Source of the DNA: Clostridia bacterium
GTDB lineage: Bacteria > Bacillota > Clostridia > Lachnospirales > JAOARL01
Direction: 5' to 3'
Length of the DNA stretch: 64,000 nucleotides
Assembly: GCA_025210555.1 (NCBI GenBank)
Contig: JAOARL010000020.1
Location: 5,265-69,264, forward strand
A program made the position numbers and the translations under genes. Under the pieces are notes generated by a model, which was not told where the DNA came from, searched no databases, and was given only the letters and a program-made list of their open reading frames with translations. Positions 27,304 to 34,717 of the stretch are shown here, one piece after another (positions within the stretch are counted from its first letter, which is position 1; the number at the start of each line of letters is the position of its first letter).

Positions 27304-28500
27304 ATGATAAGTGTAGGTATAGATGTATCGAAAGGTAAAAGCACTATATGTATACTAAAACCATATGGGGAAGTGCTCCAATCTGCAGTTGATATAGAGC
27401 ATACGGAAAGTGATCTCTTTGAATTAGTAACTAAGATAAAGAAATTTAGTGAAGAAGTAAAAGTTGTCATGGAAGCTACTGGAGCATATCATATGCCAAT
27501 TCTTATGTACTTAAATAATCAAGGTATATTTGTATCAGTGGTTAATCCGCTAGTCATGAAGAAGTATGGAGCTAAGAACTTAAGAAAAGGTAAAACGGAT
27601 AAGTTAGATGCTATAAAGATAGCTAAATATGGATTGGATAATTGGTTTGAACTGAAAGAATATAAATGTGAAGAGTTTAAGTACAAAGAGCTTAAAATAC
27701 TAGGTAGGCAATATGCGCATTACATTGGTATGAGAGTGGAGAGCAAGCAAACTATGAGCAAGATGTTAGATTATACAATGCCAGGAATAAAAAAACTTTT
27801 GAGTAATAACTCGCATAATCCTACAAGAGATAAGTTAAATGATTTTGTAGAGTGCTTTTGGCATTTTGATAATATAACAAAATATAGTGAAGAAGAATTT
27901 GTTGATGTTTATATAAAATGGGCAAAAGAAAAAAGATACCATCAAAGCGCTGCAAAGGCTAGAAAAATACATGCAGTAGCTATAGATGGCATCTCAACAT
28001 TAAGTTCTACTAATAATTCTACAAAATTATTAGTAGAAGAATCAGTTAGAGTTCTTCGCGAAATTGATCAAACTCTACTTAAAATTTTAACACAAATGAA
28101 AGAAATAGCAAAGACGCTTAAAGAGTATGATGTAGTAAGGGATATGGGAGGAGTAGGAGAAGTTTTAGCTGTTAGATTGATAGCTGAAATTGGTGATATT
28201 AATAAGTTTCATAGTAAAAAAGCATTGATTGCATATGCTGGAATAGATGCTCAGCCTTATCAGTCAGGACAATTTACAGGAGAGAGAAGAAGAATTTCTA
28301 AAAGGGGATCATCTGTATTAAGAAAAACAGGCTATGAAGTTATGGCAGCTTTAAAAACAGTTAAACCCAAAGAAGATTCGGCATATAAATACATATTAAA
28401 AAAAGAGTATGAAGGGAAGCCTAAGAAAGTAGCTAAGATAGCAGGATTGAACAAATTTTTGAGAATTTACTACGCGAGAGTAAAAGAAGTTTGTATGTAA
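27304..28500 (+). CDS. IS110 family transposase (DEDD recombinase)
   Basis: 398 aa; SD GGGAGG; MISVGIDVSKGKS N-terminus, MEATGAYH, C-terminal Transposase_20-like region (VGEVLAVRLIAEIGDINKF...AYAGIDAQPYQSGQ...ISKRGS). Confidence 0.9.
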   Translation: MISVGIDVSKGKSTICILKPYGEVLQSAVDIEHTESDLFELVTKIKKFSEEVKVVMEATGAYHMPILMYLNNQGIFVSVVNPLVMKKYGAKNLRKGKTDKLDAIKIAKYGLDNWFELKEYKCEEFKYKELKILGRQYAHYIGMRVESKQTMSKMLDYTMPGIKKLLSNNSHNPTRDKLNDFVECFWHFDNITKYSEEEFVDVYIKWAKEKRYHQSAAKARKIHAVAIDGISTLSSTNNSTKLLVEESVRVLREIDQTLLKILTQMKEIAKTLKEYDVVRDMGGVGEVLAVRLIAEIGDINKFHSKKALIAYAGIDAQPYQSGQFTGERRRISKRGSSVLRKTGYEVMAALKTVKPKEDSAYKYILKKEYEGKPKKVAKIAGLNKFLRIYYARVKEVCM

Positions 28501-29127: not shown

Positions 29128-30324
29128 ATGAAAAAAGTTTTACTATCATTAGGATTATTTGTAGGAATAGTGTTAAGTTCTTATGCAGCTACTGATGTTT
29201 CAAGTAGTCACTGGGCATATGATTCTATCAATAGAGTTGTTAATGCTGGTTATATGAAATTAGATGCATCAGGTAGATTTAATCCAAAAGGAAATATCGA
29301 CAGATTTGAAGTTACTAGAATGTTAGCAAGTGCTGCTGGATATGATAAATTAAGCAGTGAGCAAGTGAATACAGTGTATGATAAGTATGCAAAAGATATT
29401 GATGTTTATGCAAATAGCAGAAGACATTGGCAAAATTCTTCAAATAAGCAAATTGCTTATTTGTTAGAGCAAAAAATATATTCAAATGGAACATTGCCTA
29501 CATTTGTAATTGTTACAGGTGATGGTAAACACTTAATTAGAAATCTTAGAAGAGAAGAGATGGCTGTTTATTTGGTTAGACTTATGGGTAAAGAAGATGA
29601 GGCTAAAAAAGCTAATTACGATATTGATATAACAGATATATCTTCTATCAGAAGTGATAAAGTTCCATACGTTAAGTATTTGGTGAAGGCTAAAATATTT
29701 AGCTTGAATTCAGAGGAGAAGTTTAGACCAAATGAAACTATGAAAAGAGCTGAAATGGCAATAGCATTAGATAAAATTATGAATGGAATAAATGTAAAAA
29801 CTGAAACAAAACCAGAACCAGTTAAAGAACCAGTTGAAGTTAAAAAAGAATTAGAGCAAGAAATTAATTTAGATGAGTATATTGATGGTAGTATAAAGAG
29901 TATACTTCCAAATAATAAATTTGTAGTAATATTAAATCCAGAAACTAAAAAAACAAAGTTATTTAAATTTGCAGAGGATGTAAATGTTTATATTGATGAT
30001 GTTAAGATGAGCAAAGTTGATTTAGAAGAAGGATCTAAAGTGAAATATATACTAAATGAAAAAAGCGTAAGTGAAATAAGAGTTTACTCTGAAAGTATTG
30101 AAAGCAAGCTTCCAGTAGTAGTTAAAGAAGATTCTAAAAATATGATTGGAGTAGTAAAAAAAGTTGTAATAGCGAGATCACCTATTTTATATGTAGAAGA
30201 AGATGGGATTGTGAGATATTATAAATTTTACGATGATAAAAATATTTTAGGACTTAGAACGGGCACAAAGTTAAGTTATAATAAAAAAGGTAAATTTATT
30301 GAAAATTTTAAAATAATAAAATAA
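29128..30324 (+). CDS. SLH-domain cell-surface protein (N-terminal SLH anchor)
   Basis: 398 aa; signal peptide ...SSYA/AT; TDVSSSHWAYDSINRVV and following SLH-like repeats; KPEPVKEPVEVKKE linker. Confidence 0.75.
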   Translation: MKKVLLSLGLFVGIVLSSYAATDVSSSHWAYDSINRVVNAGYMKLDASGRFNPKGNIDRFEVTRMLASAAGYDKLSSEQVNTVYDKYAKDIDVYANSRRHWQNSSNKQIAYLLEQKIYSNGTLPTFVIVTGDGKHLIRNLRREEMAVYLVRLMGKEDEAKKANYDIDITDISSIRSDKVPYVKYLVKAKIFSLNSEEKFRPNETMKRAEMAIALDKIMNGINVKTETKPEPVKEPVEVKKELEQEINLDEYIDGSIKSILPNNKFVVILNPETKKTKLFKFAEDVNVYIDDVKMSKVDLEEGSKVKYILNEKSVSEIRVYSESIESKLPVVVKEDSKNMIGVVKKVVIARSPILYVEEDGIVRYYKFYDDKNILGLRTGTKLSYNKKGKFIENFKIIK

Positions 30325-30441
30325 GGGCTAGCTCTTATTTTTTTGTTACAAAACAATTGCAATAGTTGAATAATGTAAATATAAATAGTATACTTTAAAA
30401 GTAAACATTTTGTTTACTCTTGAAAGGATGGAGGAGATTTT

Positions 30442-31602
30442 ATGAGTGTTAAGGATATTGGGAATAATATTCTATATTACTTGAAAGAGCAAAAGAAGAC
30501 CCAAGTTGACTTAGCCGAGGGCATAGGAACTTCGAAGCAGATTATAAATAAAATAGTTAAAGGGAAAAAAGCTTTGAGAGTTTCTGAAATATCAAAGATT
30601 GCAAATTATTTAAACGTAGATATAAAATTATTAATTGAAGGTAAGAACGATGAAATAAAAGAATCTTATCAAGCAGCGCTTTTATCAGGGAGAGTTAGAA
30701 AAGAAGATACGGTGAAAAGGATAATAAGTGTTGTAGAAAGATTAGAAGATATGCAAAATTCACTTATAATTAATAAGGTTATGGAAAAGAAAAAAAGCAT
30801 TGAAAATTATACTGATGAATTAGAGTTAGTTGTTAAGTATATAAAAGAGAGTCAGTATGGAATTATAAAGGATGATATATTTAGTATTCTTAAAGCTAGA
30901 GGATATTTGATATTTTTTCCAATGGATGAAGAAGATTTATATGGTATGTATTTAAGTAAGAATGGAGAAAACTATTATATAATAAATAGTTTATTAGAAA
31001 GAGAAAAACAAGTGTTTATAGCAGCGCATGAATTGGCACATAGCTATAAATTTGCTAAAGTTGAAGAAGAAATGATAACTAGTAGAGTAATTGAAAAATG
31101 TGTAAATGCACAGTGCGACAATAAGATTGAAAGTAAAGCCAACGAATTTGCTAGAAAGCTTTTAGTTGATGAAGAAATACTGAAAAAGGTATATAAAGAT
31201 ATTGACGAAAATGATGAAATTTTAAAAACATTAATGATTTCGTCAAAATTTTTAGTACCATATAAAATTATTGTAGAGCGATTATATGAGAGTAAAATTA
31301 TAGAATTAAGTGATAAGAATAAACTTTTAAAAATTGAAAAAGATGAACTTTTACAACTTGCAAGTACTGAAGAGTGTTGTAGATTGAATTATGAGAAAGT
31401 TAATCAAAATGTGGAACTTGGACAATATGTTAAAAAAGCAATAGAAATGTATGATAATGATCTTTACACATATAATAAATTGAAACAAGCATTAGAAATT
31501 ATAGAAAAGAAACCAGAAGAGTATGGAATAAAAGAAGATGAGTTTAATTATTATAGTGAGTTCAGTAAACAGAATAAGGGCGATGGTATATGTGAAAAAT
31601 AG
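30442..31602 (+). CDS. XRE-family HTH fused to ImmA/IrrE (M78, COG2856) metallopeptidase domain
   Basis: 386 aa; HTH TQVDLAEGIGTSKQIINKIVKGKKALRVSEISKIANYL; HEXXH in FIAAHELAHSY. Confidence 0.8.
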   Translation: MSVKDIGNNILYYLKEQKKTQVDLAEGIGTSKQIINKIVKGKKALRVSEISKIANYLNVDIKLLIEGKNDEIKESYQAALLSGRVRKEDTVKRIISVVERLEDMQNSLIINKVMEKKKSIENYTDELELVVKYIKESQYGIIKDDIFSILKARGYLIFFPMDEEDLYGMYLSKNGENYYIINSLLEREKQVFIAAHELAHSYKFAKVEEEMITSRVIEKCVNAQCDNKIESKANEFARKLLVDEEILKKVYKDIDENDEILKTLMISSKFLVPYKIIVERLYESKIIELSDKNKLLKIEKDELLQLASTEECCRLNYEKVNQNVELGQYVKKAIEMYDNDLYTYNKLKQALEIIEKKPEEYGIKEDEFNYYSEFSKQNKGDGICEK

Positions 31603-32200
31603 CGCCTTTATAGATACTGACATAGTAATTAAAATTGGAAACTACGAGGGCGAAGATTTACTGAAAAAAATATTAGGTAGTTATGATTATGATTTATATA
31701 TACATGAGTATATAATAAAAGAAGAATTATTGAGTTCTGAAAATGCAAAGAGACAGATAAATGAAATGATAGAAGAAGAAACTCTAAGAGTATTTCTTGA
31801 ATCAAGTTTAAATTTAGATGAAAAGATAGGGTACAGTCTTACTAAAGATTTACTTAGTAAGGATAGTGATAAAAAGCTGGATGATAAACCTCGAAAAAAT
31901 TTGGGTGAAATATTAAGTATGTCGGCAGCATATGTTAAAGGATACAGTTGTTTTATATCAGATGATAAAGAAGCAAAAATGTTTGCTAAAGATTATTTGA
32001 TATACGATTCAGGTGATAGTATAAAGGTCATAAATATGAAAGACATAGTTAAATATGTTTCAGATAATGAAAGTATGGGGATAAAGAGAAAAACTATGAA
32101 ACACTTATATATATCTTTGGGGTTAGGTTGTGAAGATAGGATTAAAAAATTAAAATTGGAATTTGAACAAATTTGGCCAGCGAAAATATTTAATGCATAA
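31583..32200 (+). CDS. PIN-like domain protein (DUF4411/DUF3368-like nuclease candidate)
   Basis: Overlaps upstream stop; start uncertain (ATG 31538, ATG 31583 or GTG 31592). Acidic PIN-type residues: AFIDTDIVIKIG near N-terminus, NLGEILSMSAAYVKGYSCFISDDKEAKMFAK. Confidence 0.55.
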   Translation: MVYVKNSAFIDTDIVIKIGNYEGEDLLKKILGSYDYDLYIHEYIIKEELLSSENAKRQINEMIEEETLRVFLESSLNLDEKIGYSLTKDLLSKDSDKKLDDKPRKNLGEILSMSAAYVKGYSCFISDDKEAKMFAKDYLIYDSGDSIKVINMKDIVKYVSDNESMGIKRKTMKHLYISLGLGCEDRIKKLKLEFEQIWPAKIFNA

Positions 32201-32226
32201 ATTTATTGAAAATTTTAAAATTATTA

Positions 32227-32256
32227 AGTAGAAGGAATTCCTTCTACTTTTTTTAC
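32227..32256 (+). terminator. intrinsic terminator
   Basis: 24-nt perfect palindrome aagtagaaggaattccttctactt followed by T-run. Confidence 0.85.
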
Positions 32257-32269
32257 AGAAATATTACAG
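32253..32269 (-). promoter_or_regulatory. perfect WalR box (TGTAAT-ATTTC-TGTAAA on minus strand) upstream of M23 hydrolase gene
   Basis: tttacagaaatattaca. Confidence 0.5.
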
Positions 32270-32319
32270 AGAGTACTTAAACCCTTGAAAACACTGGGTT
32301 TTAACAAGACTAAAAAAAG

Positions 32320-32349: not shown

Positions 32350-32369
32350 TGGTAAAATAATACCGAAGT

Positions 32370-32386
32370 ATTACAGAAATGTTACA
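32370..32386 (-). promoter_or_regulatory. perfect WalR box (TGTAAC-ATTTC-TGTAAT on minus strand), same ATTTC spacer as the first box
   Basis: attacagaaatgttaca, ~40 nt upstream of the start codon. Confidence 0.5.
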
Positions 32387-32425
32387 AAACATTTTAATAA
32401 GTTAATAATTTGGAGGAAATCTATT

Positions 32426-34072: not shown

Positions 34073-34432
34073 TTGAAAAATACTGTAGAATATTATATTG
34101 AGCCGAATGGCAAAATTCCTGTACTAGAGTTTTTGAAGAGCATAACAGCAAAAAATAGAGCAAAAGCAATTAAAGAAATTGAATTGCTAGAAGAGCATGG
34201 ATTTTATTTAGGTATGCCGCATGTGAAAAAGTTGCAAGGTGAAAAGTATAAGGGACTTTATGAATTAAGAATAAGAGTTGGTTCTGATTCTAGTAGAATA
34301 TTTTATTTTGTGTATGATGGTGATAAGTTTATATTGTTAAACGGTTTTATAAAAAAAGATAATAAGACTTCAAAGAGAGAATTGGAAAGGGCAATAAACT
34401 ATAAAAGTAATTATGAAAGAGGGTGTAATTAA
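34073..34432 (+). CDS. Gp49/DUF891-type RelE-fold toxin (HigB-like)
   Basis: 119 aa; TTG start after AAGGAG; NGKIPVLEFL...RIFYFVYDGDKFILLNGFIKK pattern. Confidence 0.7.
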   Translation: MKNTVEYYIEPNGKIPVLEFLKSITAKNRAKAIKEIELLEEHGFYLGMPHVKKLQGEKYKGLYELRIRVGSDSSRIFYFVYDGDKFILLNGFIKKDNKTSKRELERAINYKSNYERGCN

Positions 34433-34717
34433 ATGAAATGTAATAGTGTAAGAGCGAAAGATATTAATAAAGAGTTATTGAAAGATAAGGAAGTTATTAA
34501 GGAATATGATAAATTAAAAGTAAGATATGATATTGTTTCAGAAATTGTTAGAATAAGAGCAAAAGAAAATATAACGCAGGCTGAATTAGCATATAAAGTA
34601 GGAACACAAAAATCCAATATAAGTAGGTTAGAGAGTGGAAATTATAATCCTAGTATTGACTTTTTAAATAAAGTTGCAAGAGGTTTAGGTAAAGAATTGG
34701 TAGTGGAATTTAAATAA
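34433..34717 (+). CDS. XRE-family HTH antitoxin (HigA-like)
   Basis: 94 aa; starts immediately after toxin stop; ITQAELAYKVGTQKSNISRLESGNYNPSIDFLNKVARGLG. Confidence 0.75.
   Translation: MKCNSVRAKDINKELLKDKEVIKEYDKLKVRYDIVSEIVRIRAKENITQAELAYKVGTQKSNISRLESGNYNPSIDFLNKVARGLGKELVVEFK

Follow-up and report, generated by a model that had tools for sequence, protein, structure and literature searches.

A fused two-gene variant of the PADLOC candidate system PDC-M69 in a Clostridia bacterium, predicted to be a protease-gated PIN-toxin cassette

Here, we analyzed a 64-kb stretch of DNA from a Clostridia bacterium (assembly GCA_025210555.1, contig JAOARL010000020.1; hereafter, the window) and describe a cassette made up of two open reading frames (ORFs) on the same strand, located at 30442-32200 in the ORF list of the window. 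Gene 1 encodes an XRE-type helix-turn-helix (HTH) domain fused to an M78 metallopeptidase, and gene 2 encodes a predicted PIN-like nuclease. By its profile matches and gene order, the module appears to be a two-gene fused variant of PDC-M69, a three-component candidate system of the PADLOC database. Reasoning by analogy with better-known systems, we consider it probable (roughly 0.6) that the module is a self-repressed, protease-gated PIN-toxin cassette serving as a toxin-antitoxin or abortive infection system.

The first-pass annotation, which was made by reading the letters of the window, described gene 1 as a 386-amino-acid protein with an N-terminal XRE HTH domain and a central HEXXH motif, and this description was borne out. 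Pfam assigned residues 12 to 62 to HTH_3 (E 2.4e-11) and residues 156 to 281 to Peptidase_M78, the ImmA/IrrE family (E 1.9e-10). The protein is thus ordered as HTH, linker, M78 core, and then a family-specific C-terminal helical region (approximately residues 285 to 386), with the HEXXH motif (FIAAHELAHSY) located at 31027-31041. When gene 1 was aligned with 15 homologues that were 28 to 38% identical, H196, E197, H200, E210, and A233-N234 of the ANxFA motif were invariant. Given the invariant catalytic residues and a marginal alignment (E 0.018) of the core with the IrrE zinc site (PDB 3DTE), the peptidase looks catalytically competent. The recognition helix of the HTH domain (SKQVxNKIxKGKKA) is also strongly conserved in the family.

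When the cassette was compared with PADLOC-DB, all three profiles of PDC-M69 were matched. Residues 4 to 95 of gene 1 matched PDC-M69A, the HTH component (E 1.7e-19), residues 137 to 373 matched PDC-M69B, the M78 peptidase (E 1.3e-44), and gene 2, directly downstream, matched PDC-M69C (E 3.9e-34). The latter profile was matched by all 49 aligned members of the gene 2 family. In PADLOC, the PDC-x label denotes candidate systems that are neither published nor validated (PMC11811056). A gene 2 homologue was found in 17 related loci, and the 15 that reach far enough upstream all have the order HTH-M78-C, with overlapping genes encoding proteins of 113 to 116, 282 to 289, and 199 to 214 amino acids, respectively. 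More than 15 independent loci, with proteins that are only 28 to 47% identical, repeat this synteny; thus, the module is more than a chance association.

The homologues of gene 1 are approximately 285 to 290 amino acids long and lack the HTH domain. In tblastn searches, the HTH and M78 domains were in different frames in all 15 relatives having both; apart from the window, the two domains shared a frame only in L007 and L008, which are independent assemblies of the same population. The contig with the fused gene 1 was seen in five samples, and the HTH-M78 fusion is therefore genuine and lineage specific rather than a sequencing error. A further difference was observed at the C terminus: the unfused M78 proteins of the relatives end in a strongly acidic tail (e.g., EDDYDEED or DDDDEE), and the fused protein of the window, which ends in QNKGDGICEK, has none. 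This difference may bear on how the nuclease is neutralized. In one metagenomic relative (L086, 1073-1525), the HTH frame extends to 151 amino acids with unrelated sequence, probably reflecting a frameshift, an assembly error, or a decaying copy.

Gene 2 is much less easily recognized. It had no match in Pfam or NCBIfam, no meaningful match in PHROGs, and no sequence match in the PDB, and a word-index homology search recovered only the gene 2 protein itself. When 1.84 billion cluster representatives were searched exhaustively with HMMER, 55 relatives were recovered at E<=1e-3, 16 of them at E<=1e-10. In the resulting family, H38, E45, G105, E106, and W195 are invariant, and D8, D10, Y81, L88, S109, A113, and D124 are at least 90% conserved. 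PIN-type acidic positions had been proposed for gene 2 at the outset from two motifs, FIDTD and NLGEILSMSAAYVKGYSCFISDD, and these do hold conserved residues of the family, namely, D8, D10, G105, E106, S109, A113, and D124 (GE..S...A and SDD). The acidic quartet D8/E45/E106/D124 is kept across members that are 21 to 45% identical, a degree of conservation that speaks for a functional active site in gene 2.

The fold of gene 2 was then predicted with AlphaFold. The single sequence gave an unusable model (predicted local distance difference test [pLDDT] score of 34), and AlphaFold (AF2) on the alignment of 49 sequences gave a pLDDT of 93.8 and a predicted template modeling score of 0.88. The top Foldseek matches of this model in the PDB were mostly PIN proteins, with a probability of up to 1.00. 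They included the VapC toxins 3H87_B, 5X3T_B, 7BY3_B, and 5WZF, as well as the PIN domain of Rrp44, PcrIIC1, Nob1, PAE0151, AF0591, and HARP RNase P. Non-PIN matches (tyrosyl-tRNA synthetases) had a far worse root mean square deviation, and the best viral structure match was annotated as "PIN like domain" (E 0.25). In the model, D8 lies just past strand 1 (residues 2 to 7), E45 ends the helix at residues 39 to 45 after strand 2, E106 opens the helix at residues 104 to 116, and D124 lies just past strand 4 (residues 118 to 122). According to the model, the four conserved acids would sit at the PIN catalytic positions. Their spacing in gene 2 (37/61/18) was compared with that of Shigella VapC (35/56/21), whose acidic positions are D7, E42, D98, and E119; mutant entries in the PDB flag D7 and D98 as functionally important, and we take E42 and E119 to be the remaining two. 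By fold and conserved acidic residues, gene 2 is predicted to encode a PIN-like nuclease. Outside the canonical PIN acidic quartet, the invariant H38 (31703-31705) is placed at the end of strand 2, and W195 (32174-32176) is C-terminal.

The module also carries a putative operator. The 17-bp pattern GTAAAC-N5-GTTTAC has a single match with at most one mismatch in the window, the perfect palindrome upstream of gene 1, and the background rate was two such matches in 724 kb of unrelated fetched DNA. Among 14 listed relative loci, of which 12 are distinct (L002 repeats L001, and L089 repeats L085), 10 have the palindrome with zero to two mismatches, starting 56 to 64 nucleotides before the HTH start codon. 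In L005 and L006, the palindrome is perfect and lies at -86, L091 has a copy at -124, and no copy was found upstream of the HTH gene in L095. Several loci have a second copy 72 to 105 nucleotides farther upstream. In the relatives, the right half-site forms the TTTACT -35 box, 17 nucleotides 5' of TATAAT or TATACT, so that repressor bound there would block the promoter. Comparison of the loci gives good evidence that the HTH domain autorepresses the operon via the palindrome, to which we infer that it binds. In the window, the distance from the operator to the ATG is approximately 20 nucleotides shorter, the -10 box of the relatives is gone, and the operator sits just 3' of a TTGAAT-17-TATACT promoter and not over its -35 box. 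The regulatory region of the window has been rearranged with the operator retained.

All named members of the gene 2 family are from Bacillota, and the family is small, rare, and patchy. Homologues of gene 2 were found in Bacillus, Priestia, Cohnella, and a Clostridia metagenome-assembled genome, with another on a Lysinibacillus plasmid, and searches with gene 1 revealed the full operon in Aneurinibacillus, Halanaerobiales, and Peptostreptococcaceae loci. Their surroundings are variable. One relative adjoins ISL3 fragments, one lies in a stretch with SoFic (9e-106) and PDC-S63, and one is beside a resolvase, a CoiA-type nuclease, and PDC-S31. The Aneurinibacillus relative is in a prophage, between serine recombinases and beside phage capsid genes; another is on a plasmid- or phage-like Bacillus contig with ParA, PriCT, and AimR; and the relative on the Lysinibacillus plasmid pFN9A adjoins recombinases, a type II methyltransferase, and a type IIG restriction-modification enzyme. 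Given this rarity and these mobile or defense-rich contexts, the pair does not behave as the universally conserved core gene pair that would have spoken against the initial proposal, and the cassette is best regarded as accessory, mobile, and patchily distributed.

The cassette of the window is flanked by a 24-nucleotide exact direct repeat (Table 1), which extends to 71 nucleotides at 73% identity (30291-30361 versus 32198-32268). Both copies encode, in frame, KFIENFKIIK*, the C terminus of the upstream SLH protein (30292-30324 and 32199-32231), and they differ in frame by four synonymous changes at third positions (ATA/ATT, ATA/ATT, AAA/AAG, and TAA/TAG). A hairpin and a T run follow each copy. 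Because both copies encode the same peptide with third-position differences only, the right copy can be explained as a relic of a diverged 3' end of an SLH gene with its own strong terminator. The repeat appears to mark the insertion of the cassette, and its pattern suggests that two diverged copies of the SLH 3' end recombined. A simple target-site duplication does not fit, since 24 identical bases are followed by diverged sequence. The repeat was absent from the 12 relatives examined; therefore, it would record one insertion event, and an att-like site belonging to the cassette was rejected. A search of GTDB representatives with the SLH protein recovered no close relative genome, only SLH domains that were 23 to 38% identical, and the predicted empty-site junction had no exact match in the JGI metagenomes.

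Beyond the parts, their conservation, and the operator, the working of the module is modeled by analogy with ImmR/ImmA, DdrO/IrrE, CapH/CapP, and RosmerTA. The XRE domain of gene 1 would bind GTAAACATTTTGTTTAC (30401-30417) and hold operon expression low. The same protein would probably also keep the cotranslated PIN-like nuclease inactive, like the antitoxin RmrA in RosmerTA. By the precedent of ImmA, IrrE, and CapP, a stress or phage cue (DNA damage or a phage product) would trigger the M78 peptidase to cut the HTH or linker region, and because HTH and M78 are fused here, cleavage could take place within or between fusion molecules. The operon would then be derepressed so that the nuclease is overproduced, the nuclease would be freed, or both. 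The nuclease would cut RNA (most likely tRNA or rRNA, as VapC does) or DNA and cause growth arrest, leading to abortive infection or to postsegregational stabilization of the carrying element.

Several observations weigh against this reading. None of the 49 aligned gene 2 members has a Pfam domain, with no match to PIN, DUF4411, or DUF3368 at E<=10, and no PIN protein was found among the PDB sequence-profile matches of the family. When the family profile was aligned by hhalign with Shigella VapC (the sequence identical to 3TND_A), only the beta1 motif was aligned, with a probability of 1.2, which is not significant. The Foldseek E-values were just 1e-2 to 4e-1 with TM-scores of 0.4 to 0.6, i.e., marginal, and the quartet was placed by sequence order and secondary structure. 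The third acidic position is Glu and not Asp, and neither the invariant H38 and W195 nor the C-terminal helical extension of approximately 50 residues belongs to the canonical features of PIN proteins. The neutralization of gene 2 by binding to gene 1 is proposed purely by analogy. The window has no obvious defense island, with only a Gp49/HTH toxin-antitoxin pair and an IS110 element nearby, and searches of IMG/VR viral contigs and of phage records recovered no relative of the subfamily. Finally, a literature search revealed no paper mentioning PDC-M69 and no experiment on the family.

For gene 2, membership in PIN, DUF4411, or DUF3368 had been named as the point to check, and the PIN-like fold was recovered by structure comparison. 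DUF4411 (PF14367) and DUF3368 (PF11848) were rejected by the Pfam hidden Markov models, which matched none of the 49 members. No VapC homologue was present among the ORFs of the fetched relative loci, and the 49 members had no profile match to other described PIN families (PF01850, PIN_3, and others).

Other explanations of the same module were weighed. It is possible, although doubtful, that the module acts solely through transcription, as a switch of the CapH/CapP or ImmR/ImmA type in which the HTH domain represses, DNA damage leads the protease to cleave the HTH domain, and only the expression level governs the PIN-like protein, with no neutralization and no true toxin-antitoxin pair. The conserved operator overlaps the promoter, as such a switch would have it, and gene 1 matched the PADLOC models of capP (weakly, 9.4e-9) and also capH. 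However, the effector gene lies 3' of the protease gene, overlaps it, and belongs to the same operon in every locus. The effector would thus be made whenever the repressor and protease are made, and a stoichiometric complex fits better. In addition, CapH/CapP is transcribed divergently from its effector operon (10.1101/2022.04.27.489752), and the conserved extra C-terminal region of the protease (approximately 100 amino acids) could be the toxin-binding part. Unlikely, too, is a single-chain switch resembling LexA, in which the fused XRE-M78 protein is repressor, sensor, protease, and antitoxin for the PIN-like nuclease at once. Self-cleavage on a phage cue would then bring about derepression and nuclease release simultaneously, and the nuclease family, absent from Pfam, could have an unusual active-site environment containing His and Trp. 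More remotely, the nuclease might act on DNA and help the cassette's own insertion, given the 24-nucleotide flanking repeat.

An addiction module that stabilizes mobile elements by postsegregational killing, without a dedicated antiphage role, seems rather improbable. The organization is typical of type II toxin-antitoxin systems, with the antitoxin first and the genes overlapping, and relatives are carried by the Lysinibacillus plasmid, the plasmid- or phage-like Bacillus contig, and the prophage with its serine recombinases; yet the cassette here is chromosomal, among cell wall genes and with no surrounding element, and several relatives adjoin defense genes (SoFic, type IIG restriction-modification, PDC-S31, and PDC-S63). 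The addiction and defense roles are not mutually exclusive. In the original COG2856-Xre reading, the protease is the predicted toxin and the HTH protein is the antitoxin (PMC2701414), and gene 2 would be catalytically irrelevant or a regulatory accessory, e.g., an inactive PIN-like scaffold or sensor. A Brucella ZnMP/HTH-Xre pair that was studied as a toxin-antitoxin system (PMC10538038) agrees with this reading, as do the Glu at the third acidic site and the invariant His of gene 2. We consider it very improbable: the four acidic positions are kept across divergent members, a fusion of HTH and protease makes a toxin-antitoxin relation between these two parts awkward, and in RosmerTA the peptidase protein is the antitoxin, whose deletion was unobtainable (10.1101/2022.05.11.491447). 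Hardly credible is a decaying immunity remnant (immR-immA-X) of a prophage or an integrative and conjugative element (ICE) that has lost its function. ImmR/ImmA-type pairs are typical of phages and ICEs, one relative is in a prophage, and the HTH frame of L086 is disrupted. Against this stand two intact ORFs with catalytic and operator motifs preserved, the same sequence in independent assemblies from several samples, and a three-part module that stays together across widely differing contexts lacking phage genes.

The features of the locus are collected in Table 1. The upstream region and strong terminator noted for the cassette in the first-pass annotation, its position wedged between an SLH gene and an M23 gene, and the overlap of gene 2 with the stop of gene 1 all held up. 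The upstream neighbor encodes an SLH-domain protein (29128-30324), and the downstream neighbor encodes a LysM/G5/M23 peptidase (32285[32426]-33988). A terminator scan observed 2 sites, including that of the cassette, versus 0.3 expected. The open frame of gene 2 spans 31538-32200. Its GTG at 31592 is the start in public gene calls and has the best Shine-Dalgarno spacing, with AAGGG 10 nucleotides upstream; an in-frame ATG at 31583 is an alternative. From the GTG, gene 2 overlaps the end of gene 1 by 11 nucleotides, and translational coupling is therefore plausible.

Table 1. Features of the cassette and its flanks (window positions)
Feature	Position	Strand	Basis
Left copy of 24-nt exact direct repeat, TAAATTTATTGAAAATTTTAAAAT, in last codons of SLH gene	30291..30314	+	
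Promoter-like TTGAAT-17 nt-TATACT, 5' of gene 1	30366..30394	+	Consensus match only
Putative operator, perfect palindrome GTAAACAtttTGTTTAC, between -10 box and ribosome-binding site	30401..30417	+	
Strong Shine-Dalgarno GGAGGAG, 5 nt ahead of gene 1 ATG	30430..30436	+	Read from sequence
Gene 1, 386 aa, XRE HTH and M78 peptidase	30442..31602	+	ORF, Pfam, PADLOC
Shine-Dalgarno-like AAGGG for gene 2, within 3' end of gene 1	31577..31581	+	Read from sequence
Gene 2, 202 aa, GTG start, PIN-like predicted nuclease, PDC-M69C family	31592..32200	+	
Right copy of 24-nt direct repeat	32198..32221	+	
Intrinsic terminator, 10-bp stem AAGTAGAAGG/CCTTCTACTT followed by T run	32226..32249	+	

The surroundings of the cassette, at approximately 27 to 37 kb of the window, are envelope genes interspersed with mobile and toxin-antitoxin genes; the cassette is chromosomal, between cell wall genes, and is not embedded in an element. 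Neither integrase nor phage genes adjoin it within the window, and no Rfam family was matched in or around the module. An intact IS110-family transposase (27304-28500; DEDD_Tnp_IS110, 6.7e-36, and Transposase_20) is encoded two genes 5' of the cassette, where SLH and OEP-like envelope genes surround it. Approximately 1.9 kb 3' of the cassette is a second, classical toxin-antitoxin pair (34073-34717), in which a Gp49-like gene (HigB/RelE type, PF05973, 2.8e-22) is followed at once by an XRE HTH gene (8.5e-11); the Gp49-like toxin also matches the C-terminal region of PADLOC NsnC (1.6e-10). Next, at 34855-37059, an ORF of 734 amino acids has no Pfam or PADLOC match, and its first 250 amino acids had no match in a PDB sequence search. 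By eye, its N terminus shows an R...STS...EEE pattern that recalls ADP-ribosyltransferase toxins, an unverified motif reading. The motif TTACAGAAAT(A/G)TTACA(A/G)A occurs in three copies 5' of the M23 peptidase gene, and a related TGTTACAAAAC occurs 5' of gene 1 (motif stretches at 32253-32270, 32361-32388, and 30344-30367). It may be a regulator site for the cell wall hydrolase gene or a piece of a duplicated intergenic segment.

Few regulators of toxins, prophages, and defense systems are as widespread as modules combining an HTH domain with an M78 peptidase. To our knowledge, the trigger of the M78 peptidase, and whether it acts as antitoxin, antirepressor, or both, is known for only a few cases. 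The family described here is a compact test case, with a 17-bp putative operator, an intact HEXXH motif, and a PIN-like effector with four clear predicted active-site residues, and its natural fused and unfused versions permit comparison. Should the cassette prove to defend against phages, PDC-M69 would advance from an unvalidated PADLOC candidate to an established system, and a PIN-like family that Pfam lacks would be gained. If gene 2 is not toxic, the widely repeated prediction of a three-component toxin-antitoxin system needs revising for the PDC-M69 branch. If the single-chain switch is true, the lineage would be a natural experiment in which a three-component system collapses into two. 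The finding will not surprise specialists; the system is nevertheless compact and well defined for testing how an M78 peptidase gates a toxin.

The closest known counterpart is PDC-M69 itself, whose A, B, and C profiles are all matched with the gene order and overlaps of the relatives. The module of the window differs in that A and B form one polypeptide, whereas they are separate genes in 15 of the 15 relatives carrying them, and in that the operator lies 3' of the -10 box and not over the -35 box. A 2009 study predicted that HTH, COG2856/DUF955, and PIN-like proteins make up a three-component toxin-antitoxin system and noted that HTH-COG2856 fusions are common (PMC2701414), and a 2017 catalogue of such systems lists COG2405, DUF4411, PIN_14, PIN_20, and PIN_26 (PMC5499597). 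The module resembles the Makarova 2009 and Matelska 2017 systems in cotranscribing the same three domains and in the HTH-protease fusion that is common among them, but no member here has a DUF4411, DUF3368, or PIN match in Pfam. The PIN_26 group of Matelska is found only in Firmicutes, and the distribution here is likewise restricted to Bacillota; set beside each other by distribution only, the gene 2 family may correspond to PIN_26. No experimental paper on DUF4411 was found in a literature search.

Among validated systems, RosmerTA is similar in having two genes, one of them encoding an antitoxin-like protein of approximately 380 amino acids with an N-terminal HTH domain and a Zn-peptidase. 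Gene 1 weakly matched six RmrA models (3.9e-7 to 2.4e-3), some of them over the full length (3.9e-7 to 7.6e-6), far more weakly than it matched PDC-M69B. In contrast, no RmrT model was matched by gene 2 or its 49 relatives, and the best PADLOC match of the module is PDC-M69. RosmerTA antitoxins of the HTH/Zn-peptidase type with swappable toxins have been validated as toxin-antitoxin and defense systems (10.1101/2022.05.11.491447; PMC10440598), and NetFlax analysis associated ImmA-type antitoxins with PIN-like domains (PMC10440598). The view that such a pairing had not been characterized experimentally therefore stands for the PDC-M69 family, for which no paper was found, and fails for the wider class.

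ImmR/ImmA, DdrO/IrrE, and CapH/CapP likewise encode an XRE repressor together with an M78 HEXXH peptidase, and, as in ImmR/ImmA-type systems, the module has a palindromic putative operator at its own promoter. In ICEBs1, the order immR-immA-X in a single operon is as in this module. In these repressor-protease systems, DNA damage or a different signal leads the M78 peptidase to cleave the repressor (10.1101/2022.04.27.489752). The module differs from these systems in that its third component is a PIN-like nuclease rather than an integrase or a CBASS operon, its repressor and protease form one protein, it showed no recognizable sensor domain of the GAF type, and the cassette has neither integrase nor phage genes next to it in the window. 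With VapBC it shares the PIN-like fold with VapC toxins as top structure matches, an acidic quartet with VapC-like spacing, and an upstream overlapping partner gene that carries a DNA-binding domain. However, the partner here is a 386-amino-acid HTH-metallopeptidase and not a small AbrB, ribbon-helix-helix, or Phd antitoxin, and gene 2 has the extra C-terminal helical region and the invariant His38 and Trp195. Type II toxin-antitoxin systems in general resemble the module in their small operon, putative autoregulation, overlapping genes, and patchy mobile distribution. A module of this kind is already known by computation, and PADLOC models the exact family as PDC-M69; the features of interest reported here are the lineage-specific HTH-M78 fusion, the conserved operator, the PIN-like family absent from Pfam, and the putative insertion scar.

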